From an uncultured Chloroflexia bacterium (lineage in GTDB: Bacteria; Chloroflexota; Dehalococcoidia; DSTF01; JALHUB01): a DNA stretch of 64,000 nucleotides. The DNA is taken from contig OY969814.1 in NCBI GenBank assembly GCA_963703345.1, positions 1,056,001 through 1,120,000 of the forward strand, read 5' to 3'. The notes beneath the pieces were generated by a model. The model had not been told where the DNA came from. It made no database searches and saw only the letters and a list, made by a program, of their open reading frames with translations. The translations under genes and the position numbers were made by a program. How positions within the stretch are numbered: the stretch's first letter is position 1; each line of letters starts with the position of its first letter. Positions 16,617 to 39,393 of this stretch are shown piece after piece.

Positions 16617-17402
16617 ATGGACCTTGGACTCACTGATCGGGTAGCGCTGGTCACCGGCGCGGGCCGTGGGATCGGCCGCCAGATTTGCGCGACGCTCGCC
16701 GGGGAGGGCGCGCGCGTGGCAGTAAACGACTTCTTCCAGGAGCGGGCGGAGGAGGTTGCCCAAGAGCTCCGAGAGGCAGGCGGTAAGGCTATCGGCGTGA
16801 CGGCAGATGTGACGGACTCCGATTCGGTACGACAAATGACCAAACAGGTGCTCGACGAATTCGGACAACTGGACATCCTGGTGAACAACGCGGGCATCCC
16901 GGTGTCTCCTGCCGAGGAATCAGGAGGGCCGTACTTCGCGCAGAGCACGCGGAACCAATGGGACAGAACGATGCACGTGATCATCTACGGGGTGATGAAC
17001 TGCAGCCGGGCGGTCATCGAGCACATGTGTGAGCGTCGGTGGGGCCGCGTCATCAGTATCATCTCCGACGCCGGGCGCGTCGGTGAGCCGCGCCTAGTGG
17101 CGTACTCTGCGGCTAAGGGGAGCGTGGTGGCCTTCACGAAGGCTCTGGCCAAGGAGGTTGGCCGGGATTGCGTCACGGTCAACTGCGTGTCGCCGGCCAC
17201 GACTGAGACTGAGGCAACCGCCGCGTGGATTCTCCCCCGAATAGAACAACTGGTACGTCAGTATCCGATGGGAAAGGGGCTAAACCGCCTCGGCCGTCCT
17301 GATGACATAGCCAACGCGGTAGCCTTTCTGGCTTCTGAGCGCGCGGAGTGGATCACCGGGCAGGTGCTGAGCGTCAACGGCGGGTACTCAATGGTGGACT
17401 AG
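16617..17402 (+). CDS. SDR oxidoreductase (FabG/BadH-like)
   Basis: TGAGRGIG, NNAG, SDAGRVG, YSAAK. Confidence 0.9.
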   Translation: MDLGLTDRVALVTGAGRGIGRQICATLAGEGARVAVNDFFQERAEEVAQELREAGGKAIGVTADVTDSDSVRQMTKQVLDEFGQLDILVNNAGIPVSPAEESGGPYFAQSTRNQWDRTMHVIIYGVMNCSRAVIEHMCERRWGRVISIISDAGRVGEPRLVAYSAAKGSVVAFTKALAKEVGRDCVTVNCVSPATTETEATAAWILPRIEQLVRQYPMGKGLNRLGRPDDIANAVAFLASERAEWITGQVLSVNGGYSMVD

Positions 17403-17419
17403 GAACTGTCGGCGCTCTG

Positions 17420-18648
17420 CGGCCCTTGTACTCCGCCGGTACGGTCGACTCGTCCGCGCCGTACGCGTGCGAGACCTGCCGGCAGAGCGAATTGACCAGC
17501 GCCCGTCCGTCCGAGGAGGCCGGCGTTGCGCCGATGAAGCGGACGACTCTCTCCGCCCCGGGATGCGCGGCGCGCGCTTCCTCCGCTGCTTTCGCCATCA
17601 GCGCCGATTTGCCTGAACCGGGCTCACCGAGCAAGGCCAGCGGACTATGATCGGTCCCCTCTATGTAGTTGCCGATGGCATTCAGGATGCTGGCCCAGCC
17701 GGTGAAGAATTCGGCGCGCTTCTCGCCAAAGGCATCATGCTCCGCGGTCTCCTTGTCCAGCGGGTCAGCCTCCAGCCGCGCGACCTCTTCCTCGATGATC
17801 CGGGAGAGGGCGTTGAACACATCATCGCATAGCTGAGGCACGTGGTCGGTGGTCACGCCGCTGCCTGTCCATCCCGCCTCGTAGTCGTGGATGTTGCCGG
17901 GGGGAAGACAGTGCAGCTTCTCCTTTAGGTCGTCCCCCCGCGCGGCGGCCTCGATATCCGGATTGCCGCTGGTGTCCAGATCCACGAAGTCCTTCGCGCT
18001 CAGATCCTGGGGCAGGTCCTTGATCGTCCGGAAGAAGCAGAAGACGCGCTCGGGGGCATCCGCAACCCGTAGCGCCCCCTGGGCGATCTCCTGCTCGGTG
18101 GCCGACGCCTCGTACTTCATGCGGTCGTAGGCCTCCAGCGGCATCCCCTGCACGGCTCGGAGCAGGATGGAACGGATCTCGCGTTCGACCACCTCCCATG
18201 CGTCGAAGTCCTCGTACTCTTCTCCACGTGGCTTCAAGCAGTACTCGGGCCGCACCGCGTTGTCGTCTCTCTCGTACCATTCCCTAAGGCGCTCCTGCTC
18301 CTCCGCGGAAATGCGCCGACAGATCTCTTCGAACTCCTCAGCGACGATCTGTGGCGGCAACGGGCGCCAGCCGTAGCGGTCACCCAGGAGCACGATGAAG
18401 TTGGGACGTGGCGTAATCCTCCGACACCGTTGGATCTCGCCCAGGCAGATGTTCATGGCCTGCTGGTCGAGGGCCGCCTCCTCGCTAACCCCCTAGCGCA
18501 GGTCGATCGCCTGGAACCGGGCGCCGTGCTGCATGCAGAGCTCGCGCAGCCTGGGGAAGGCCCGCTCCTGGAGTGCGTTGCGCTCCTCCTTGAGGTCGCC
18601 GAAGGTGGAGCTCACGAAGATGCGGAATGTCCTGCCTAGCCGTGCCAC
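17420..18648 (-). pseudogene. DUF4062 + NACHT/AAA NTPase (NWD1/TEP1-like), with an internal TAG and truncated 3' end
   Basis: GTG start gives RTFRIFVSSTFGDLKEERNAL...IDLR*GVSEE (TAG at 18493-18495 replaces the W of DLRWG), FIVLLGDRYGW, SATEQEI, Walker A GEPGSGKS, RFIGATP. Homology stops about 60 aa after Walker A. Confidence 0.85.
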
Positions 18649-18708
18649 CTCATGCCTCCTTCTGAGCGGTCCGCCTAGGCGCGGTCACTTGCGCCGCCGG
18701 AACCGCCA

Positions 18709-20439
18709 CTAGGATCTCCCGCCCGACGGGGCGTCTGCCGGCATTCGGGTGACGAACGGGTTGACCCGCATGCGGCCCTTGCGGCCCGGCTGCGGGCAGT
18801 CGACGACCTGGCCGAGCCAGCTTCTCTCCGACGGGAATTGCTCAAAGCAGGCAGGGCAGCGCACCTTTGGCCCGTGCCCAAAGTCCGCCGCTGTCACAAT
18901 AATAGGCTCATACGCAATGCCCACCGGGTCGATGAAGTAAACGTTTCCACCCGCGTCGCCGCAGAACGTGAACGGAAGGCGCGGGTGGATAGCGACGCAA
19001 AACAGGGCACCGAGAAGTACCAGGGTCACCCGCTCCTTGCCCGTCGCCGCGTCCCAGATCTTCAGGGTCTCGTCCATGCTGGCCGAGACGGTGAAGGAGC
19101 CGTCTGGGCTAATCACGCAGGCGTTGACGTAACCGGTGTGGCCGCTGAGGGTCAGCCGCTCCCTGCCATTCGCCGCGTCCCAGATCTTGAGGGTCTTGTC
19201 GCTGCTCGCGGAGACGACGAAGGAGGAGTCAGCGCTTATCGCGCAGGCGGTGACCTCGTCGGTGTGGCCGGTGAGGGTCAGCCGCTCCTTGCCCGTCGCC
19301 GCGTCCCAGATCTTCAGGGTCTTGTCCATGCTGGCCGAGACGATGAAGGAGGAGTCGGGGCTGATCGCGCAGGCGAGGACGTGACCGGTGTGGCCGATGA
19401 GGGTCGGCAGCCCCTAGCCCGTCGCCGCGTCCCAGATCTTCAGGGTCTTGTCCATGCTGGCCGAGACGACGAAGGAGGAGTCGGGACTGATCGCGCAGGA
19501 GACCCCACCGGTGTGGCCGGTGAGGGTCAGCCGCTCCTTGCCCGTCGCCGCGTCCCAGATCTTCAGAGTTCCGTCGTGGCCCGCCGAGACGACGAAGGAG
19601 GAGTCGGGGCTGATCGCGCAGGCGCCGACCTGACCGGTGTGGCCGCTGAGGGTCGCCCGCTCCTTGCCCGTCGCCGCGTCCCAGATCTTCAGGGTCTCGT
19701 CCATGCTGGCCGAGACGACGAAGGAGGAGTCGGGGCTGATCGCGCAGGCCCAGACCTGACCGGTGTGGCCGCTGAGGGTCAGCCGCTCCTTGCCCGTCGC
19801 CGCGTCCCAGATCTTCAGGGTCTTGTCCAGGCTCGCCGAGACGGTGAAGGAGCCGTCTGGGCTAATCACGCAGGCGTTGACGTAACCGGTGTGGCCGCTG
19901 AGGGTCAGCCGCTTCTTGCCCGTCGTCGCGCCCCAGATCTTCAGGGTGTTGTCCCAGCTTCCGGAGACGACGAAGGAGCAGTCGGGGCTGATCGCGCAGG
20001 CGCTGACCCAATTGGTGTGGCCGGTGAGGGTCAGCCGCTCCCTGCCCTTCGCCGCGTCCCAGATCTTTAGGGTCTTGTCCCTGCTCGCGGAGACGACGAA
20101 GGAGGAGTCAGCGCTTATCGCGCAGGCGTCGACCGGAGCGGTGTGGCCGCTGAGGGTCGCCCGCTCCTTGCCCTTCGCCGCGTCCCAGATCTTCAGGGTT
20201 CCGTCGTGGCTCGCCGAGACGACGAAGGAGGAGTCGGGGCTGATCGCGCAGGCGTAGACCGGACCGGTGTGGCCGCTGAGGGTCAGCCGCTCCTTGCCCG
20301 TCGCCGCGTCCCAGATCTTCAGGGTCTTGTCCCAGCTCGCCGAGACGATGAAAGAGGAGTCGGGGCTGATCGCGCAGGCCAAGACACTACCGGTGTGGCC
20401 GGTGAGGGTCCAGGTTGGGAAAACACCACCGGTACTCAT
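18709..20439 (-). pseudogene. WD40-repeat protein (11 highly conserved repeats) with C-terminal Zn-ribbon; one in-frame TAG
   Basis: ORFs 19414-20439 and 18709-19329 are in the same frame, separated by TAG 19414-19416. AGGAGG RBS before ATG 20439. Tail CGDAGGNVYF...VRCPAC...CPQP. Confidence 0.88.
19027..20409 (-). repeat. Tandem array of eleven 126-bp coding repeats (one is 123 bp)
   Basis: Unit TL(S/T)GHTxxVxACAISPDSSFVVSASxDxTLKIWDAATGKERL; span 1383 bp = 11x126-3. Confidence 0.95.
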
Positions 20440-20611
20440 TGATCCCTCCTATCCCCAGGTGGGAACTTCCTCCGCGCCGACGGAAAGTCTTCAAGGAGAG
20501 AGACACGGTCCGAGGCGCGATGGAAAACTGTTGCCGCCCCTAGGCTCGGGCCAACGTTTGCCTAGCAGCCTGCTGGGGATCAGTTTCTGCCCGCCTGGAG
20601 GCTGCACGAGT

Positions 20612-20639
20612 ATTCTAGTCTTGATGGGGGACTTGTCAA
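20612..20639 (-). promoter_or_regulatory. Sigma70-type promoter for the WD40/DUF4062-NACHT operon
   Basis: Minus strand TTGACA-16 bp-TAGAAT, about 170 bp upstream of the WD40 start. Confidence 0.6.
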
Positions 20640-20993
20640 GTGAGAGAATATGCAGGCTGTGGAAACCGATTGCGCGAGATGGTGGGCGGAGGAAGCATTG
20701 GCTCGGTCTGCACGTAGACCTTGAGCAGTTAGAGGACGGGACCCACTATGTGCGCCCGTGGGCCGCCGGGGCGCTGGCATTAAGCACGCATGGTGTTACA
20801 GGCCGCTCAATCTAGGGCCTTAGATGGAGAGTACTCACGGATAGCCAGCTTGCCGTCAGCCACCCGTCACAACTGGCGCAATGCGGCGTAGCACTGCGCA
20901 GCCCCTGAGTTGGCGGCGCCGCTAATTAACCCAGCGTTCTGGACGCGCCGGTCGAGACTATTCGGCGATGTTCAGCCGTCAGCGGCGGAGGTG

Positions 20994-21206
20994 CTAGCCT
21001 TCCTCGTACTTGAACGAGAGCTTGATCCTCGCGCGGTAAAGGACCACCTTGTTCTTGTCGACAGTCATGTCGAGGTTCTCGACCTCCGCGATCCGTAGAT
21101 CGCGCAGAGTGCTGCTGGCCCGCTCGACCGCACTGCGGGCTGCCGCTTCCCACGACTCCGTGCTGGTTCCCACGAGTTCTATGATTTTGTAGGCACTCTC
21201 CGCCAT
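20994..21206 (-). CDS. Dodecin (flavin-binding protein)
   Basis: YKIIELVGTSTESWEAAARSAVERASSTLRDLRIAEV...YRARIKLSFK; GGAGGT RBS. Confidence 0.93.
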   Translation of the reverse strand: MAESAYKIIELVGTSTESWEAAARSAVERASSTLRDLRIAEVENLDMTVDKNKVVLYRARIKLSFKYEEG

Positions 21207-21244
21207 AACCGGCACCTCCGTGCGCTCTACTCAGATTCGCAATC

Positions 21245-21324
21245 GTACGCCCGCCGCAGCGCTGGAGCAACTGCGTCATGGGGATGGTACGCTCGCCGCA
21301 GCGCTGGAGCAACTGCGTCATGGG
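21245..21324. repeat. Two-copy 42-bp tandem duplication, intergenic
   Basis: GTACGC(C/T)CGCCGCAGCGCTGGAGCAACTGCGTCATGGG at 21245 and 21287. Confidence 0.85.
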
Positions 21325-30184: not shown

Positions 30185-30510
30185 GCTCACTCTCCAAGCT
30201 TAGGAATTGCCCATTTTTTCGCGCAAGACGCCGATTATGAAGGTGCCCCGTCGGGGGAGCCCGGAGGTAAACAGGCTCGTTGCGGCCAGCGGCGGCCAAG
30301 AGCAAGAATCACGCCAGCACACCCCAGCGGGGCCATAGCAGGAATGGGGCAGAGAAGGCACGCGCGGATTGGCGTCACGATGTTCGGGTCGTGTGTGTTG
30401 AAGGGCGTAACGGTGAGCGCTAGATCTGCCAGTACACTTCGTAAAGCCACAGGGGTTCTCGAAGCCGCGCAGCGCACCGTAGCGTCTTGCAGCTTGATGG
30501 GCCGCGCATC

Positions 30511-33500
30511 ATGATGCAATCGAAGATTCGCCAAGGTCAGGGGGAAACTGGCTTGAACAGCGGCAGCCGGGGTTTTCGTAGCGCCATCCGCACCATCTGG
30601 GGCCGCCGCCACAAGCAGGGGGTCGAGCCGGCACGGAGCGGCGACGACCTGCCACCGCTGCGCGCCGAGCTGCTCAGCCTCGAGCAGCTTAAGGGCCACG
30701 CGAAAGAGCTTGCGGCGAGGCACGCCGTCGAGGAGAAGCGGGGGCCGGATCTTCTGCTCCCACAGCTCAATGAGAACGAGCGTGTCCTCCTCAATGCCTA
30801 CCGGCTCATGACGGACGAGGGGGAAGAACAGGTTCGTGTCACTCCGGCCGCCGAGTGGCTGCGCGACAACTTCTACCTTATCGAGGAGCAAATACGGGCC
30901 GCGCGGGCCCACCTGCCCAAGGGGTACAGTCAGGAGCTCCCCCGCCTGCTGGGCGGCACCTCGGCCGGCTACCCCGTCGTCTACGCCATCGCCTTAGAGC
31001 TTGTCTCCCACGGAGACGGGCGCGTCGACGCGGGCAGTCTGAGCGCTTTCGTCTCTGCCTACCAGGCAATCAGACCGCTAAAGTTGGGCGAGCTTTGGGC
31101 GATTCCGATCATGCTGCGCCTGGCGCTGATTAACAACCTTCGCCGCGTCGCGGCTCGCATCGCCGCCGACCGACTCGCGCGCAACCAGGCGAACCATTGG
31201 GCCGACCGGATGATCGAGGTGGCGGGGAAAGAGCCGACGAGCCTGATCCTCACCCTAGCGGACATGGCGCGGTCCCGGCCGCAGATGTCCAGTGCCTTTG
31301 TAGCTGAACTCGCCCGCCGGCTCCAGGGCCAAGGCCCCGCGCAGGCGATGCCGCTTACCTGGCTGGAGCAACGGCTCACCGAGATGAGCCTGACGATCGA
31401 GCGGCTGATCCAGCTTGAGGGCCAGCAGCAAGCAGAGGGCCAGGTTTCGATCAGCAACAGTATCGGCAGCCTCCGCTTCCTCGACGCCACCGACTGGCGT
31501 GAGTTCGTGGAGACGATGAGTGTCGTCGAGGACACGCTCCGTGACGACCCGGCCGGCGTCTACAGTCAGATGGACTTCGCCACGCGCGACCGCTACCGGC
31601 ACGTCGTCGAACGCGCGGCCCGCCGAGGCGGCCTCGCGGAGCGAGAGGTGGCGCAGAAAGCGGTGGACTTGGCAGCGGCCGCGCGGACGCAGGCCGGCTC
31701 CCAGGACCGGACGGCCCACGTCGGCTACTACCTGATCGACCGGGGCGTCCCGCTTTTCGAGCGCGCCGCTCAGGTCCGCCTCTCGCCCCTTGAGCGACTT
31801 CGGCGAGCGGCAGGCCGCATACCCCTGCTCCTCTACCTCGGTTCGATCTGGCTGATCGCCGCGACCGTAACGTTCGCGGTGCTGGTGCAGGCCATGGCCT
31901 TCGGTACCCGGGGCTGGGGGCTGCTACCGCTCGGCGCGCTCATCCTCCTTTGCGCCAGCTCGCTCGGGATCGCAGTCGTGAACTGGCTGGCGACGATTCT
32001 CGTCAAGCCCAACACGCTGCCGCGGCTCGACTTCTCGCGGGGAATACCTTCCGACCTGCGCACGCTCGTCGTCGTGCCCATGCTCCTTACCGAGCCGGAG
32101 GACATCGAAGATCTGCTTGGCGCGCTGGAGGTGCGTTTTCTGGCGAACCACGACAATAACCTCTACTTCGGACTGCTGACGGACTTCCGCGACGCGCCGG
32201 CGGAGGTGATGCCGGAAGACGGGGAACTGCTCCGTCTGGCGCGCGAGGGAATCGAGACGCTCAACCGCAAGTACCAGGACGACCGCGATGACGCCTTCTT
32301 CCTCTTCCATCGACCGCGCCGCTGGAACCCTCAAGAGCGCGTGTGGATGGGCCACGAACGCAAGCGGGGGAAGCTGAGTGACCTCAACGCCCTCCTGCGT
32401 GGTGCGGAGGACGGCCGATTCTCGCTGATCGTCGGCGAACGGTCGGTGCTGCCGGCCGTCAAATACGTGCTCACGCTCGACGCCGACACGGAGCTCCCTC
32501 GCGACGCCGCCCGCCTCCTCGTCGGCACGCTCAGCCACCCTCTCAACCGACCGCGTTACGATGAGGCGAAGGGGCGCATCTGCGAAGGCTACGGCATCCT
32601 GCAACCGCGCCTATCGCCGGCGATGGCGAACGTCAGCCGCTCACCGTTCAGCCGCCTGTTCGGCGGTGAGCCCGGCATCGACCCCTATACACGCGCCGTC
32701 TCCGACGTCTACCAGGACGTCTTCCGCGAGGGGTCTTTCACCGGCAAGGGAATCTTCGACGTGGACGCTTTCGAGCGGGCGCTCGGCGGCCGCTTCCCCG
32801 AGAACCTGATCCTCAGCCACGACCTGCTTGAAGGCTGCTATGCGCGGTCCGCGCTTGTCACTGACGTTCAACTCCAAGAGAGCTACCCGACGCGCTTCAG
32901 TGCCGATGTGACCCGCCGCCACCGCTGGATCCGCGGTGACTGGCAGATCGCCCGTTGGCTGTTGCCGTTTGCGCCCGATGCCAGCGGCCGTTCGGCGCGC
33001 AACCCGCTCTCGGCGCTCTCGCGCTGGAAGATATTCGACAATCTACGGCGGAGTCTACTGCCCGGTGCGCTCGTGCTCCTCCTGCTCCTTGGGTGGACAA
33101 CTCTTGGGCCGGCTTGGTTCTGGACATGCATTGTCGCCGGCATCGTCCTTCTCGGTCCGCTTCTGGCCTTCCTTGGCGACATCGCCGCCAAGCCAACGGG
33201 TCTGCCGATCCGCTTGCACCTCAGGGCCGCCGCCGCGTCGGGCGCCAGGCGAATGGCCCAGAGCGCGTTCGGCCTGGCGGTCCTGCCCTACGAAGCGGCT
33301 TTCAGCCTGGACGCCGTGCTCAAGACTTGGTGGCGGATGCTAGTCACGCGGCGCGGTCTCCTTAAGTGGACAACGTCAAGCGACGCCAGGCGGAGCGCCA
33401 GCAGGCGGCTCGCCGAGTTCTTGCGAATGATGTGGGTAGCGCCGGCCATAGCTCTCGCGGTGATGGGCTACCTCTCGGTTGAGCGGCCTATGGCGCTCCT

Positions 33501-36500
33501 GCCTGCGGGGCCGCTTCTCGCTGCCTGGGTGGCCTCGCCGGTCATTGCCTGGTGGGTAAGCCGACCGATCGAGCAGCGGGAGCCGCACCTCTCGCCCGTG
33601 CAAACGAACTTCCTGCGCAAGCTGGCCCGCGAGACGTGGCGCTTCTTCGAGACGTTCGTAGGCCCTGAAGACAACTGGCTGCCGCCCGACAGCTATCAGG
33701 AGGAGCCGATCGAGACGGTTGCCCACCGGACCTCGCCCACGAACATGGGACTTTCACTCCTCGCCAACCTGGCTGCGTACGACTTCGGTTATATATCCGC
33801 CCGCCGCCTGATCGAGCGGACGACGCGCGCACTCCAGACGATGGAGGGGCTGGAGCGGAACCGCGGCCACTTCTACAACTGGTACGACACGATCACGCTG
33901 CGGCCGCTTGCGCCGCTCTATGTTTCCACGGTTGACAGCGGCAACTTGGCCGCCCACCTACTCACGCTGAGGCCGGGCTTGCAGGAGTTGGCGGATAGCC
34001 AGGTTCTGCCACCTCAGGCTCTTGGCGGCCTCCGCGACACGCTCGGCCTCCTGGCCGGCGCAGCACGGGCTGCCCGCTCGCCCGAGACGCCAGATAGTGA
34101 CAGCGGCCTCACCGGAATGCTCGACGAGATCGCCGGGTTAATCGACACGCCGGCCAGCCCTCCCGTCGGCCTCTACGCCTGCCGCTCACTCCTCGATCAG
34201 TTGATGACGGCGGCTGGGCGCATCGCTGGCGACTTGGGCCCCGAGCCCGATGCCGAGGCGGAGTGGTGGGCTCGCTCGTTCAAGGAGCAGTGCGAGGACT
34301 GGCTCGGCGACCTCGACCACCTAGCGCCCTGGGCGGCACTGTCGCCTCCGCCCGACGCCCTAGTCGATAACGGGGCTACCGAAGCCGCGGCGTCCGAGGC
34401 GTTGTTCGATGCGATCTGCCGGCTCGAGGAGGGCCCCACGCTCCGCGAAACCGCCGACTTCAGTGAGACGCTCATCCCGGCGCTCGACGCCAGGCTTGCC
34501 GCCCTCACGGTCGACGGCACGCGACCTGCCCACGAGTGGCTGGCCCGTTTACGGGGCGCAGTGAGCGAGGCGAGCAGCCACGCAGCTGACCGGTTGGAAA
34601 CCATCGAGCGGCTCGGCGGGCTCAGCTACAGGCTGGCCGACGCGGACTACGACTTCCTGACGGACCATTCGCGCAACCTGTTCGCCATCGGCTACAACGT
34701 CGCCGAGCGGCGGCGCGACCCGAGCTACTATGATTTGCTGGCCTCAGAGGCGCGGCTTGCCAGCTTCGTCAGCATCGCGCAACGACACCTGTCGCAGGAT
34801 CACTGGTTCGCGCTTGGTCGCCTCGTCACCACCTCCGGCGCCGACCCCGCTCTCCTCTCCTGGGGCGGCTCCATGTTCGAATACCTGATGCCGCTCGTCG
34901 TCATGCCGACATACGGCGGCACTGTGCTTGACGGGACCTATAAGGCCATCGTCCGTCGTCAGATCGGGTACGGCGCGCAGCGGGGCGTCCCTTGGGGCAT
35001 CTCGGAGTCCGGCTACAATACGACGGACGCCCACCTCAACTACCAGTACCGCGCCTTCGGCGTGCCGGGGCTCGGCTTCAAGCGAGGTCTCGCGGAGGAC
35101 CTCGTCGTCGCGCCCTACGCGACGGTGATGGCGCTGATGGTCTCACCGAAAGAGGCATGCGCAAATCTTGAGCGCCTCGCCGACCTCGGCGCGGAGGGCC
35201 GCTACGGCCTCTACGAGGCGATCGACTACACATCCTCGCGCCTGCCGCGCGGCGAGACGTTTGCGCTCGTGCGGTCGTTCATGCCACACCACGAGGGTAT
35301 GAGCTTCCTCTCTCTCGCCTACGCGCTCCTCGGCCGGCCGATGCAGCGCCGCTTCCTCTCCGAGCCGATCTTTCGGGCGACAGAGGGTCTGCTGCAGGAG
35401 CGCGTGCCTAAGGTCGCACCTTTCTACCCAAACGCCGCCGAGACGTCCGGGCTGCAGCAGCGCGCCGGTGAGTACCAGGCCCTCCTTCGCGTGTTCAGCA
35501 ACCCCAACTCCGCCTCGCCGGAGGTGCACCTGCTTTCCAACGGCAGCTACAACGTTATGGTGACCAATGCCGGGGGCGGCTATAGCCGTTGGCGCGACCT
35601 CGCGGTCACGCGCTGGCAAGAGGATGCGACTCGCGATTGCCACGGCACGTTCTGCTACCTCCGCGACCTGACGAGCGGCGAGGTATGGTCCACGGCCTAC
35701 CAGCCGACGCTGAGGCAGCCGAAGACCTACGACGCGATCTTCTCCCAGGCGCGCGCCGAGTACCGCCGCCGCGATGGCGAGATCGACACGCATACGGAGA
35801 TCGCCGTCTCGCCGGAGGACGACGTCGAGATCAGACGCATCAGGATAACGAATCGCTCCGGCACGCGGCGCACTATCGAGGTGACGAGCTATGCGGAAGT
35901 AGTCATGGCGCCGCCGGCCGCCGACGCCGCCCACCCGGCCTTCAGCAACCTCTTCGTCCAGACGGAGATCGTCCCGTCGCACGACGCCGTCCTTTGCTCG
36001 CGGCGGCCTCGCTCGCCCGGCGAGCCGACGCCCTGGATGGTCCATTTGATGGACGCGAGAGCGACATCCTCCATCGGCGAGACATCGTTCGAGACGGACC
36101 GGCTGCGCTTCATCGGGCGGGGCCGCTCCCTCGCCGACCCTGAAGCAATGCAAGACACTGGCCGCCTTTCCGGTAGCCAGGGCGCCGTGCTTGACCCGAT
36201 CGTCTCAGTCCGCCGCCAGGTTACGGTGGGTCCGGATGAGACGGTCTGGGTGAACGTGGTGACCGGTGTCGGCGAGACGCGCCAGCGGGCGATGGCGCTC
36301 GCAGGCAAGTACCACGACCGCCGCCTGGCCGACCGTGTCTTCGATCTGGCGATGACCCACCGGCAGGTCGTCCTCCGCCAGCTCAACGCGACCGAGTCCG
36401 ACGCCCAACTCTACGGCCGCCTCGCTAGCTCGATCGTCTACGCCAACGCGGGCCGCCGAGCGCCGGCGAACGTGCTCGCTCGCAACCGGCGCCCGCAGTC

Positions 36501-39393
36501 CGGACTCTGGGGCTTCGGCATCTCCGGCGACTTGCCGATCGTACTTCTGCGCATAGGCGACCGAACGAAGATCGAACTCGTGCGGCAGCTCGTCCAGGCG
36601 CACGCGTACTGGCGCCTCACCGGGCTCGCAGTCGACCTTGTGATCTGGAACGAGGAGCCATCCGGCTACCGACAGGAGCTGCACGAGGAGATCATGGGAA
36701 TCGTCTCCGCCGGAACTGAGTCGCACGTCATTGACCGGCCGGGTGGCATCTTCGTCCGGCACGCCGACCAAATGTCGGAGGAGGATGGGATCCTCCAGCA
36801 GACTGTCGCCCGCGTTGTGATCGTCGATACTGCCGGGACGCTGGCCGAGCAGATCGAGCGCCGCCGCCGCGTCCAGCAAGCTGTGCCGGCGCTCACGCCG
36901 GCCGATGGCATCGTGCCCGAGCGCGAGCGCGCCGTCGAGCTTCCAAGCCGCGACCTCCTGTTCTCGAATGGCCTCGGCGGTTTTGCGCCGGACGGGCGCG
37001 AGTACGTCATCACTCTGCGGCCGGGCGAGACGACGCCAGCGCCCTGGGCGAACGTGCTGGCGAACCCGCAGTTCGGCGCCGTGGTTACAGAGAGCGGGGG
37101 TGGCTACACCTGGGGTGAGAACGCCCACGAACTCCGTCTGACTCCCTGGTACAATGATCCGCTCACGGACACTAGCGGAGAGGCTTTCTACGTTCGTGAC
37201 GAAGAGACCGGTCGCTACTGGTCGCCGACGCCCCTACCAGCGCGCGGCGTGACCGCCTACACGTGCCGCCACGGCTTCGGGTACACGGTTTTCGAGCACG
37301 CGGAGGACGGCGTCGTCTCCGAGCTGGCCGAGTACGTTGCGCTCGACGCGACGGTGAAGCTGATGGCGCTTACGCTTCGCAACGAGTCGGGCCGGGCGCG
37401 GCGCCTCTCGGCGACGGGCTACGTCGAGTGGGTGCTCGGCGAGCAGCGGTCAAAGTCGCTCCTCCACGTCGTTACGGAGATCGACCCGAAGAGCGGCGCC
37501 GTCTTCGCCCGCAATCCCTACAACGGCGACTTCCCCGGCCGCGTCGCCTTCTTCGACGTGGACGAACCGCACTGCACCGTTACCTGTAATCGCGCCGAGT
37601 TCATCGGCCGCAACGGCCTGCCAGGCCAGCCCTCGGCAATGAAAAGGGCTCGTCTATCCGGCCAGGTTGGCGCTGGGCTGGATCCCTGCGCCGCGCTGCA
37701 GGTCCAGGTCGACCTGGCCGACGGCGAGGAACGGGAGATCGTCTTCGTCCTCGGCGTCGGGCGCGACGAGGAGGAGGCGCGCGACGTCGTGCAGCGCTTC
37801 CGCGGCCTCGGGCCCGCGCACGCGGCGCTGGAGGCGGTCAAGGCGCACTGGGAGCGTGTCCTTGGCGCCGTCCGCGTCGAGACACCGGAGCCAACCGTCA
37901 ACATCCTCGCCAATGGCTGGCTTCTCTATCAGACAATCGCTTGCCGCCTCTGGGCGCGGACCGGCTTGTATCAGTCGGGTGGCGCCTTTGGCTTCCGCGA
38001 CCAGCTCCAGGACGTGATGGCGCTTGTCCACGCCCAGCCGCTACTCATCCGCGACCACCTGCTGCGCTGCGCGGCCCGCCAGTTCCGCGAGGGGGACGTC
38101 CAGCACTGGTGGCACCCGCCGACAGGGCGTGGCGTGCGAACGCGCTGCTCCGACGACTTGCTCTGGTTGCCACTGGCGACGGCCCGCTACGTCCTCGCGA
38201 CGGGCGATACCGGCGTCCTCGACGAGCACGTCGCCTATATCGAGGGGCGGCCGCTCAACCCGGGCGAGGACTCCTACTATGACCTGCCGGCGCGGTCGGA
38301 GGAGACGGGCACCCTTTACGAGCACTGCGTCAGGGCGATCGAGCGGGGAACGCGGCTCGGCCGACACGGGCTGCCGTTGATCGGCTCCGGCGATTGGAAC
38401 GACAGCATGAACACGGTCGGCCTGGGCGGTAAGGGCGAGAGCGTCTGGCTGGCGTTTTTCCTCCAGCATGTTCTTACACAGTTCGCCGAAGTCGCGCGCC
38501 TCCACGGCGATGCCGCCTTCGCCGAGCGTTCAGAGTCGGAGGCCGCGGCACTCCGCCAGTCGGCAGAGATGCACGCCTGGGACGGCGATTGGTACCTTCG
38601 CGCCTACTTCGACGCCGGCGAGCCGCTTGGCTCTGCTGGCAGCCCGGAGTGCCGCATCGACTCGATACCTCAGAGCTGGTCTGTGATATCCGGTGCCGGC
38701 GACCCGCAGCGCCCTCGCGTCGCCATGGAGTCTGTCGACCGGCTGCTCGTGCGCCGCGATCAAACCCTCATCCAGCTCCTTGACCCGCCGTTTGACAAGT
38801 CCGAACTGAATCCCGGCTACATCAAGGGGTATCCGCCGGGCGTGAGGGAGAACGGTGGCCAGTACACGCATGCCGCGGTCTGGGCGATCATGGCGTTCGC
38901 GGCGCTGGGCGACGGCCGCCGCGCCTGGGAGTTGCTCTCGCTGATCAGCCCGCTCAACCACGCGTCGGCTGCAGAGAAAGCGGCGACCTATCGTGTCGAG
39001 CCGTACGTTGTCGCCGCCGATGTCCACGCGCTGCCGCCGCGCACGGGCGAAGGCGGCTGGACCTGGTACACGGGTGCCGCCGGCTGGATGTACCGGCTGA
39101 TCGTCGAGTCGCTGCTCGGCCTTCGCTTGGAGGTAGATCGGCTGTCCTTCACGCCTTGCCTGCCGGCCGACTGGCAGTCGTTCAGCCTCAGGTACCGTTA
39201 CCGGGAGACGACCTACGCGATCACCATTCGACGAGCGGGCGAGGGCGATGGAGTGTGCGTAGTCGTAGACGGCGTTGAGCAGCACGAGACGTCGATCCGG
39301 CTCGTTGATGACAACCGGCCGCACACGGCCGAGGTCGAAATCGGCCGGGGCGACGGAAGTAGCCACACCATCGCCCGCTTCGACAATCGTTGA
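30511..39393 (+). CDS. ndvB: Cyclic beta-1,2-glucan synthase (GT84 + glucoamylase-like + GH94 phosphorylase domains)
   Basis: About 2960 aa: EWLRDNFYLIEEQI, LDADT, SHDLLEG, RRHRWIRGDWQ, TM helices, HRTSPTNMG, YYDLLASEARL, YQSGGAFGFRDQLQD, GDWND, ENGGQYTHAA. Confidence 0.93.
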   Translation: MMQSKIRQGQGETGLNSGSRGFRSAIRTIWGRRHKQGVEPARSGDDLPPLRAELLSLEQLKGHAKELAARHAVEEKRGPDLLLPQLNENERVLLNAYRLMTDEGEEQVRVTPAAEWLRDNFYLIEEQIRAARAHLPKGYSQELPRLLGGTSAGYPVVYAIALELVSHGDGRVDAGSLSAFVSAYQAIRPLKLGELWAIPIMLRLALINNLRRVAARIAADRLARNQANHWADRMIEVAGKEPTSLILTLADMARSRPQMSSAFVAELARRLQGQGPAQAMPLTWLEQRLTEMSLTIERLIQLEGQQQAEGQVSISNSIGSLRFLDATDWREFVETMSVVEDTLRDDPAGVYSQMDFATRDRYRHVVERAARRGGLAEREVAQKAVDLAAAARTQAGSQDRTAHVGYYLIDRGVPLFERAAQVRLSPLERLRRAAGRIPLLLYLGSIWLIAATVTFAVLVQAMAFGTRGWGLLPLGALILLCASSLGIAVVNWLATILVKPNTLPRLDFSRGIPSDLRTLVVVPMLLTEPEDIEDLLGALEVRFLANHDNNLYFGLLTDFRDAPAEVMPEDGELLRLAREGIETLNRKYQDDRDDAFFLFHRPRRWNPQERVWMGHERKRGKLSDLNALLRGAEDGRFSLIVGERSVLPAVKYVLTLDADTELPRDAARLLVGTLSHPLNRPRYDEAKGRICEGYGILQPRLSPAMANVSRSPFSRLFGGEPGIDPYTRAVSDVYQDVFREGSFTGKGIFDVDAFERALGGRFPENLILSHDLLEGCYARSALVTDVQLQESYPTRFSADVTRRHRWIRGDWQIARWLLPFAPDASGRSARNPLSALSRWKIFDNLRRSLLPGALVLLLLLGWTTLGPAWFWTCIVAGIVLLGPLLAFLGDIAAKPTGLPIRLHLRAAAASGARRMAQSAFGLAVLPYEAAFSLDAVLKTWWRMLVTRRGLLKWTTSSDARRSASRRLAEFLRMMWVAPAIALAVMGYLSVERPMALLPAGPLLAAWVASPVIAWWVSRPIEQREPHLSPVQTNFLRKLARETWRFFETFVGPEDNWLPPDSYQEEPIETVAHRTSPTNMGLSLLANLAAYDFGYISARRLIERTTRALQTMEGLERNRGHFYNWYDTITLRPLAPLYVSTVDSGNLAAHLLTLRPGLQELADSQVLPPQALGGLRDTLGLLAGAARAARSPETPDSDSGLTGMLDEIAGLIDTPASPPVGLYACRSLLDQLMTAAGRIAGDLGPEPDAEAEWWARSFKEQCEDWLGDLDHLAPWAALSPPPDALVDNGATEAAASEALFDAICRLEEGPTLRETADFSETLIPALDARLAALTVDGTRPAHEWLARLRGAVSEASSHAADRLETIERLGGLSYRLADADYDFLTDHSRNLFAIGYNVAERRRDPSYYDLLASEARLASFVSIAQRHLSQDHWFALGRLVTTSGADPALLSWGGSMFEYLMPLVVMPTYGGTVLDGTYKAIVRRQIGYGAQRGVPWGISESGYNTTDAHLNYQYRAFGVPGLGFKRGLAEDLVVAPYATVMALMVSPKEACANLERLADLGAEGRYGLYEAIDYTSSRLPRGETFALVRSFMPHHEGMSFLSLAYALLGRPMQRRFLSEPIFRATEGLLQERVPKVAPFYPNAAETSGLQQRAGEYQALLRVFSNPNSASPEVHLLSNGSYNVMVTNAGGGYSRWRDLAVTRWQEDATRDCHGTFCYLRDLTSGEVWSTAYQPTLRQPKTYDAIFSQARAEYRRRDGEIDTHTEIAVSPEDDVEIRRIRITNRSGTRRTIEVTSYAEVVMAPPAADAAHPAFSNLFVQTEIVPSHDAVLCSRRPRSPGEPTPWMVHLMDARATSSIGETSFETDRLRFIGRGRSLADPEAMQDTGRLSGSQGAVLDPIVSVRRQVTVGPDETVWVNVVTGVGETRQRAMALAGKYHDRRLADRVFDLAMTHRQVVLRQLNATESDAQLYGRLASSIVYANAGRRAPANVLARNRRPQSGLWGFGISGDLPIVLLRIGDRTKIELVRQLVQAHAYWRLTGLAVDLVIWNEEPSGYRQELHEEIMGIVSAGTESHVIDRPGGIFVRHADQMSEEDGILQQTVARVVIVDTAGTLAEQIERRRRVQQAVPALTPADGIVPERERAVELPSRDLLFSNGLGGFAPDGREYVITLRPGETTPAPWANVLANPQFGAVVTESGGGYTWGENAHELRLTPWYNDPLTDTSGEAFYVRDEETGRYWSPTPLPARGVTAYTCRHGFGYTVFEHAEDGVVSELAEYVALDATVKLMALTLRNESGRARRLSATGYVEWVLGEQRSKSLLHVVTEIDPKSGAVFARNPYNGDFPGRVAFFDVDEPHCTVTCNRAEFIGRNGLPGQPSAMKRARLSGQVGAGLDPCAALQVQVDLADGEEREIVFVLGVGRDEEEARDVVQRFRGLGPAHAALEAVKAHWERVLGAVRVETPEPTVNILANGWLLYQTIACRLWARTGLYQSGGAFGFRDQLQDVMALVHAQPLLIRDHLLRCAARQFREGDVQHWWHPPTGRGVRTRCSDDLLWLPLATARYVLATGDTGVLDEHVAYIEGRPLNPGEDSYYDLPARSEETGTLYEHCVRAIERGTRLGRHGLPLIGSGDWNDSMNTVGLGGKGESVWLAFFLQHVLTQFAEVARLHGDAAFAERSESEAAALRQSAEMHAWDGDWYLRAYFDAGEPLGSAGSPECRIDSIPQSWSVISGAGDPQRPRVAMESVDRLLVRRDQTLIQLLDPPFDKSELNPGYIKGYPPGVRENGGQYTHAAVWAIMAFAALGDGRRAWELLSLISPLNHASAAEKAATYRVEPYVVAADVHALPPRTGEGGWTWYTGAAGWMYRLIVESLLGLRLEVDRLSFTPCLPADWQSFSLRYRYRETTYAITIRRAGEGDGVCVVVDGVEQHETSIRLVDDNRPHTAEVEIGRGDGSSHTIARFDNR

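Follow-up and report, generated by a model that had tools for sequence, protein, structure and literature searches.

A locus at positions 17374-20639 of a 64,000-nucleotide stretch of DNA from an uncultured Chloroflexia bacterium (contig OY969814.1 of assembly GCA_963703345.1, positions 1,056,001 to 1,120,000; the whole stretch is called the window) is read here, with a probability of about 0.7, as a broken copy of a split NLR-like (nucleotide-binding, leucine-rich-repeat receptor-like) system, in which a DUF4062-NACHT protein, the hub, likely docks onto separately encoded WD40 sensors. NLR and other STAND receptors are described as single chains in which the sensor keeps the ATPase shut in cis. 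In intact members of the family analyzed here the hub stops inside helical domain 2, and the sensors start with the conserved part of the segment preceding WD40 repeat 1, which was named LINK. The window copy itself is useful merely as a pointer to this intact family.

Separate hub and sensor genes

The survey covered 158 loci with a hub alignment (78 from genomes and 80 from metagenomes), drawn from the best 80 each of at least 548 and at least 559 confirmed hits, respectively. They were classified as 46 split, 76 fused (single-chain), 1 other and 35 incomplete. The incomplete loci, the single other locus, three truncated "split" rows and six near-duplicates were left out before co-occurrence was counted. 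A stand-alone LINK-WD40 gene was present at 38 of the 42 non-redundant split hubs (at least two such genes at 20 of them), compared to 1 of 71 fused hubs. Where flanks of at least 3 kb were available on both sides, the numbers were 26 of 28 for split hubs (18 with at least two) and 0 of 28 for fused hubs. The LINK profile is not blind to fused forms, since it also detected LINK inside 51 fused proteins. At 43 of the 158 loci the hub reaches its end and then stops, so that these hubs do not form the one polypeptide by which TEP1/NWD1-type proteins are defined.

Protein-level searches gave the same picture. Among the best 120 of 569 hub homologues found in a search restricted to 270-860 aa, a range that excludes fused forms by design, 118 reach the hub end: 93 stop no more than 30 residues past it and 25 add a Zn ribbon only, while the remaining 2 fall short. 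LINK had 589 matches in a protein library clustered at 50% identity; in the best 150, LINK lay within the first 35 residues of 137 and was fused to a hub in 3. The preliminary description of the window had reasoned that the WD40 gene would be a deletion product if all its homologues carried an N-terminal NACHT and the gene pair occurred nowhere else. Not one of nine homologues of the window's sensor tail carries a NACHT (eight start with LINK and the ninth is incomplete), and the gene pair is widespread. Named split loci with sensors come from at least seven phyla, including Acidobacteriota, Chloroflexota, Bacteroidota, Pseudomonadota, Bacillota, Aminicenantes and Ignavibacteriota; L048, L049, L057, L075 and L091 are examples of intact loci.

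An intact hub consists of DUF4062, NACHT, a winged helix and half of helical domain 2, followed by the stop, in some cases after a Zn ribbon. In the intact hub P0004, Pfam recognized DUF4062, HTH_NWD1 and, above cut-off, NACHT. The sensors comprise LINK and approximately 7 to 20 WD40 repeats, with a Zn ribbon in many of them, and one to five full-length sensors were found per locus (five in L057 and L065). They lie directly upstream of the hub at 14 of 43 loci, directly downstream at 18 and on both sides at 10. An ATG or GTG codon is located just 5' of LINK in 81 of 89 sensor frames.

The position of the cut was examined with structure models. The hub model (predicted local distance difference test score, pLDDT, 89), in which HD1 and the winged helix follow the NTPase, had Avs3, Apaf-1 and plant NLRs, all STAND proteins, as top matches. 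Fused relatives carry the two halves one after the other, and in four of them a split-type hub end is joined directly to LINK. The model of a fused relative contains one helical domain across this junction, with pLDDT 84-97 over most of residues 191-360 and 70-81 at the hairpin, and a four-residue loop separates the last hub helix from the first LINK helix. It aligned with residues 404-586 of Apaf-1 over 172 residues (root-mean-square deviation 3.4; Z 8.2, a modest value for helical domains); Apaf-1 and Dark were the sole rows at Z of at least 8, and both Foldseek and the domain order agreed with the Apaf-1 alignment. In this model and alignment, helical domain 2 is complete only once LINK is added to the hub. 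Because the fused model is confident across the junction and aligns with Apaf-1, the cut was placed inside helical domain 2, and on these models each half of the domain likely needs the other. LINK has no Pfam family, and Atlas leads to APAF1_C were sub-threshold.

The two halves also vary together. Across 39 loci, LINK identity was correlated with identity over the last 78 columns of the hub (r 0.64, partial 0.44), and less so with identity of the nucleotide-binding domain (r 0.51, partial 0.08); LINK identity between sensors was 0.48 within a locus and 0.32 between loci. The correlation is suggestive only, because the loci are kin and not independent samples, and this tempers the case for docking. 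Docking of hub and sensor in trans appears quite probable.

Some family members depart from the common layout. At 8 of 43 loci (e.g., L048:7668-10208), and in 25 of the proteins P0001-P0120, the hub ends in the same Zn ribbon as the sensors, a feature that may represent a second module for docking or a scar left by an internal deletion. The sensors P0124, P0213 and P0218 have an extra cyclic-nucleotide-binding-like C-terminus or HEAT-like repeats, all below curated cut-offs. A rare LINK-less form is found at L122:7543-9990, where the hub is directly preceded by a separate WD40-Zn ribbon gene that has an ATG of its own but keeps no more of LINK than its last residues.

Predicted engine, variable propellers and competing explanations

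In TEP1, and likewise in antiphage proteins, DUF4062 has been shown to act as a TIR-like NADase (10.64898/2026.05.01.722283, 10.64898/2026.09.04.749371). The hub profile matched the TEP1 DUF4062 structure with E 8e-20. All 43 hubs keep the G, G, K and S of Walker A, both Walker B Asp residues and the last Glu of the motif SATEQE (of the two Walker motifs, the window copy has Walker A only), as well as the Arg matching TEP1 R976. The invariant Glu lies where expected, after the third strand, and is presumably the counterpart of TEP1 E1008, an assignment made from sequence position, as the TEP1 alignment ended ten residues before E1008 and a second search also stopped short of it. The DUF4062 of the hub has a long insert ahead of the putative catalytic helix. 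The catalytic motifs are intact in sensor-less hubs too.

In Podospora NWD proteins, codons 7, 9, 25 and 27 of the WD40 repeats are positively selected and lie on the top face of the propeller (PMC1805685). Columns 8, 10, 26 and 28 of the repeats analyzed here were fixed as test columns beforehand, from the spacing in that paper. The nonsynonymous difference (pN) was 0.62 at these four columns and 0.077 elsewhere in the window array, for which the overall synonymous difference (pS) was about 0.13; the corresponding pN values in the intact relative G007, described below, were 0.65 and 0.098. Of nine other sensors whose repeats are homogeneous, seven had a pN above pS at these columns.

A mechanism may be proposed from these features. 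LINK would complete helical domain 2 in trans, giving an Apaf-1-like closed unit. The variable top face of the propeller would bind a ligand, probably a protein of phage or other foreign origin; the NACHT domain would then exchange nucleotide and oligomerize, and the clustered DUF4062 domains would hydrolyze NAD+, leading to cell arrest or death. The split would permit specificities to be added or swapped without duplication of the toxic engine. By analogy with its characterized relatives, an immune NADase output seems likely. We consider it somewhat more plausible than otherwise that the family as a whole is a modular NLR, with one NACHT NADase engine and a panel of plug-in WD40 sensors, whose docking half-domains are matched and whose specificities are gained, shuffled and lost gene by gene, often within a cluster of RyR-domain and alarmone-synthetase genes. 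If so, the family would provide a natural model of TEP1/NWD1-type receptors that can be reprogrammed. As the hub can be expressed with or without a sensor, whether WD40 sensors repress or activate the engine can be addressed directly, and the family makes the TEP1/NWD1/NWD2 architecture, the activating signals of which are to our knowledge not known, tractable in bacterial models.

Several results weigh against this interpretation. Four of the 42 split hubs had no sensor within the fetched flank, and a Shine-Dalgarno-like site was found at just 35 of 89 sensor starts. The hub and WD40 genes of G007 are on separate contigs, with the break within the repeats. Outside the window and G007, pN at the four test columns exceeded overall pS in only 18 of 39 sensors, although pS there is largely saturated. 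The hub profile has no conserved counterpart of the TEP1 Arg R908, and the antiviral-STAND models of PADLOC 2.0 (2023 library) matched neither three intact or partial hubs nor the window fragment. NADase activity, ligand and phage defense are assigned by homology. From 204 frames picked beside hubs, neither the 128 scanned with PADLOC nor the 60 scanned with Pfam contained a complete known defense system; the neighbor matches were shared domains such as ClpB-like AAA, RelA/SpoT and ThiF. Because of this, the antiphage step rests on homology and the evolutionary pattern. In a NACHT-core tree (110 rows, without 3 truncated and 4 long-branch rows) the split hubs were clustered but did not form one clade, with 13 changes compared to 34 in shuffles. 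A single origin of the split was rejected by an approximately unbiased (AU) test on 80 rows after thinning (p 0.0003). As the split hubs are not one clade, fission and re-fusion appear to recur.

Such recurrence is also predicted by an alternative in which the stand-alone LINK-WD40 genes are not protein subunits but spare cassettes or fission debris, occasionally re-fused or used as repeat donors. The tree fits this idea further in that fused forms are nested in split clades with strong support (L163 with L061, L069 with L123), and so do the four fused proteins with a split-type hub end joined to LINK, the LINK-only fragments seen in L065 and the frequent disruption of repetitive prokaryotic propellers (PMC9218822). 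Several findings speak against it: hub ends are constant to a few residues across phyla, sensors retain start codons and a conserved LINK, and hubs without a sensor keep their catalytic motifs. Moreover, where the sensor is directly upstream of the hub (the 14 loci noted above), read-through fusion is impossible. We regard the cassette explanation as improbable, though it is the strongest of the competitors.

The neighboring genes raise a different alternative of nearly the same, low probability: that the complex does form from its split parts, yet works with RyR-domain, RelA/SpoT and TrkA-N proteins as a switch in stress or metabolic signaling and not as an antiphage executioner. Among the wide-flank loci, RyR-domain genes were found at 16 of the 28 split and 13 of the 28 fused ones (none in the genome that holds the window); RelA/SpoT, TrkA-N and ClpB-like genes recur, and no complete known defense system was seen among the scanned neighbors. 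Integrase and transposase genes are also present in the neighborhoods, and together with the hypervariable top-face positions and the varying number of sensors they fit a conflict system. So do the antiphage NADase role reported for DUF4062 and a patchy occurrence: hub matches were found in 2 of 41 related genomes searched, both of the same genus (G000, which holds the window, and G007), and in none of 400 further genomes of the class at E 1e-20. The split immune receptor is retained as the preferred reading.

Two further observations concern these neighborhoods. The RyR-domain genes occur with TrkA-N, RelA/SpoT or an ATPase (L048-L205; L206:1432-4440). A ClpB-like double AAA gene recurs by the split loci L073, L076, L096, L103, L116, L169 and L060, with weak PADLOC matches to PDC-M37B and DolB.

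The window locus and its decay

All parts of the window locus are on the minus strand. A sigma70-type promoter-like site (TTGACA-16-TAGAAT, 20639-20612) matches 11 of 12 consensus positions and has the same hexamers and spacing in contig C166 of G007; one site of this type was observed, compared to 0.5 expected in shuffles. A ribosome-binding site AGGAGG (20450-20445) precedes the ATG at 20439 of the sensor pseudogene (18709-20439), which comprises a 10-codon N-terminal stub, 11 WD40 repeats, one degenerate closing blade and a C-terminal Zn ribbon (18745-18906). The WD40 array spans 19022-20410; tandem-repeat analysis gave 11.0 copies of a 126-bp unit with 85% matches, the mean DNA identity of the repeats is 0.87, and columns 8, 10, 26 and 28 (and 7) are variable. 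A gap of 60 bp separates the sensor gene from the hub pseudogene (17374-18648; DUF4062, of the TIR-like NADase family, and the start of NACHT), whose GTG at 18648 is preceded by its own AGGAGG (18660-18655). The hub contains SATEQE at 18088-18105, the last Glu being the putative catalytic residue, and Walker A at 17605-17628. Pfam recognized WD40 and DUF4062 in these genes, the NACHT/AAA_16 matches being weak, and the closest named hub, from the intact Dehalococcoidia locus L048, is 77% identical over 409 aa, a match that hints at the class of the host but is no proof of it. The preliminary description had located the promoter, both ribosome-binding sites, the gap, the 11 repeats, the Zn-ribbon tail and the DUF4062-NACHT gene correctly.

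It missed the decay of this copy, which is seen in the sequence itself and by comparison with G007 and with contigs of the runs X2, X3 and X4, which are ~92% alike to the window and join the WD40 tail to DUF4062. Each frame has an in-frame TAG. The first (19414-19416), at the end of WD40 repeat 8, breaks the sensor frame, and this repeat is also one codon short. The second (18493-18495) is hub codon 52, which encodes Trp in 43 of 43 split hubs. After Walker A the hub runs into a deletion junction (17403-17426), defined by comparison with G007, beyond which the frame enters the 3' end of a short-chain dehydrogenase (SDR) gene; X2 and X4 diverge from the window at 17426. Walker B, the winged helix and the first half of helical domain 2 were lost. 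The NACHT gene, which had been taken as merely cut off, is thus truncated by a real deletion: the G007 hub continues via Walker B, the winged helix and a few helices to a natural stop, contains no WD40 repeats, and is followed by about 10.2 kb before the SDR gene that abuts the window's hub stump.

The sensor has suffered an in-frame loss of 78 codons (junction 20410-20431; X3 and X4 diverge from the window at 20431), which removed LINK, the C-terminal half of helical domain 2. In G007, whose WD40 gene has the same promoter and keeps its LINK-containing N-terminus, 88 residues precede WD40 repeat 1, compared to 10 in the window, so the protein described as consisting only of WD40 repeats and a tail is a deletion product. 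A probable third loss point lies at 20720-20932, from where G007 has two genes divergent from the sensor promoter, one encoding an ATPase-RyR protein and one which we take to be SLOG-like (it has no Pfam or NCBIfam match); the window departs from G007 and X4 at about 20720-20730. The SLOG-like and ATPase-RyR genes and the missing half of the hub were found nowhere in G000, a single 2.28-Mb contig (96% complete) that was searched in full.

Smaller changes were also recorded. The fourth Cys of the Zn ribbon is replaced by Arg at 18783-18781, while four Cys residues are kept in 75 of 75 other full-length ribbons and the runs X8 and X5 carry a Cys codon at this position. An Arg-to-Trp change at 17697, in a column invariant in hub alignment A1, is bridged by a contig of X1, possibly the source population, with zero differences. 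Non-variable WD40 columns had a pN/pS of 0.57, compared to 0.40 in G007, consistent with relaxed constraint. One result belongs with the counterpoints gathered above: the window hub has 7 missense changes at conserved columns, including the stop, compared to a mean of 3.6 (range 0-11), which is unexceptional, and missense load was dropped as proof of decay for not being discriminating. Five substitutions, including the TAG, are bunched in ~30 bases at the repeat 8/9 boundary (19390-19416), beside the one-codon loss.

No second hub, LINK or WD40 array, and no second copy of either gene, was detected in G000. A weak LINK-like match with three stops was discarded because the LINK profile did not support it, and the only other candidates were a 34-residue DUF4062 relic and an unrelated cyclase-ATPase. 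The relic, of another DUF4062 N-terminus, lies amid unrelated genes outside the window (G000:C1:559301); the lineage therefore lost such a gene earlier. With a hub expected to end at codon 51, a sensor that lacks its docking segment and no other LINK in G000, the window locus is predicted to be dead; it is almost certainly a pseudogene and likely non-functional.

The earlier proposal of a split NLR with a propeller acting in trans fits the intact family, with the amendment that the family sensor starts with LINK and is not a bare propeller; for the window locus, a pseudogene, it does not hold. It is very unlikely that a LINK-less propeller still works in the window genome, in trans as a free sensor, decoy or repeat reservoir, even though the promoter and ribosome-binding site are intact, LINK was lost in frame, the 8 repeats before the stop would suffice for one 7-bladed propeller, and a single LINK-less WD40-Zn ribbon gene with its own ATG exists among the 158 loci (L122). 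Such a propeller would have no hub, LINK or other WD40 array in G000 as partner or recipient, which also disposes of the suggested reservoir or decoy role; LINK is present in eight of nine tail homologues, the ninth being incomplete, and constraint on the non-variable columns is relaxed. Least likely of all is an intact locus in the living organism, with the lesions explained by misassembly or by recoding of TAG. In favor of this, the two stops are both TAG and share their local context, the listed X1 contigs do not cover the repeat TAG or the two deletion junctions, and the hub TAG, present in a zero-difference X1 contig (X2-X4 have a Trp codon), is 4-6 bases from its end, but all 14 X1 pieces placed at ≥96% match the window at ≥99%, the missing hub half and the SLOG-like and RyR genes are absent from the entire single-contig genome, and recoding is ruled out, with both TAGs being real stops, because TAG is the commonest stop of G000 (241 of 525 long ORFs) and no PylS was found there above cut-off.

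The flanking genes are outside the system: the SDR gene (16617-17402, plus strand), which served as a synteny marker, and a dodecin gene (20994-21215, minus strand). Just 5' of the latter, a 42-bp unit is present in 1.9 tandem copies (21245-21324). Farther away, a 2968-aa ORF (30487-39393) presumably encodes a cyclic beta-1,2-glucan synthase/phosphorylase-type protein. The G007 stretch absent from the window encodes a 1708-aa protein with a long repeat array and a CHASE2 adenylate cyclase (L005:2014-9338); similar repeat arrays are present elsewhere in G000.

Comparison with known systems

The accessible text of a STAND survey (PMC13581612), the bNACHT preprint and a conflict-system survey (PMC7159879) does not contain the split layout, and neither RyR nor DUF4062 is mentioned in PMC9503650. 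Neither the split nor the RyR association was found described in the literature searched, which did not include supplements and most subscription papers; supplementary architecture tables for STAND, NACHT or DUF4062 proteins could list such proteins. The parts are known, while the split arrangement is real, widespread and apparently unpublished.

TEP1/NWD1/NWD2-type proteins and their fused bacterial relatives have the same domains in the same functional order as the split system (10.64898/2026.05.01.722283), TEP1 being assigned to NACHT clade 16 by Kibby et al. (10.1101/2022.07.19.500537). Here a cut in helical domain 2 divides the chain into a hub and at least one separate sensor, and the sensor gene often comes first. 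Apaf-1 was among the top structural matches both of the hub and of the winged helix-helical domain 2-WD40 segment of the fused relative, but differs in having NB-ARC, a CARD effector, a single chain and one fixed ligand, and shares 13-18% identity. The fungal NWD proteins HET-E and HET-D likewise have near-identical WD40 repeats, two pairs of variable positions at the same spacing, and pseudogene members (PMC1805685). They are single chains with HET effectors that exchange repeats between loci, whereas here whole sensor genes vary around a hub.

The DUF4062 NADase effector is shared with PsAvs2, Swarozyc, Vulcan and Vesta, in PsAvs2 on a STAND NTPase (10.64898/2026.09.04.749371, 10.64898/2026.05.01.722283), and the Swarozyc domain is distantly similar to the hub DUF4062 (E 0.0095). 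PsAvs2 differs in being one chain with a TPR sensor, and in the accessible part of these reports separate WD40 sensors are not described for DUF4062/NIR antiphage proteins. The nearest published two-gene case, as far as the available text goes, is the cyanobacterial WRAP operon (PMC9218822), which couples TIR-STAND and STAND-WD40 genes, has a recently amplified propeller and is frequently disrupted, and for which innate immunity was proposed. The WRAP propeller protein has a STAND module of its own, while the sensor of the split system has no NTPase and just half of helical domain 2. In the NAIP-NLRC4 and plant NRC networks, as in the split system, many sensors converge on one executioner. There each sensor is a complete NLR and has a nucleotide-binding domain of its own, whereas here one NLR is divided between chains.

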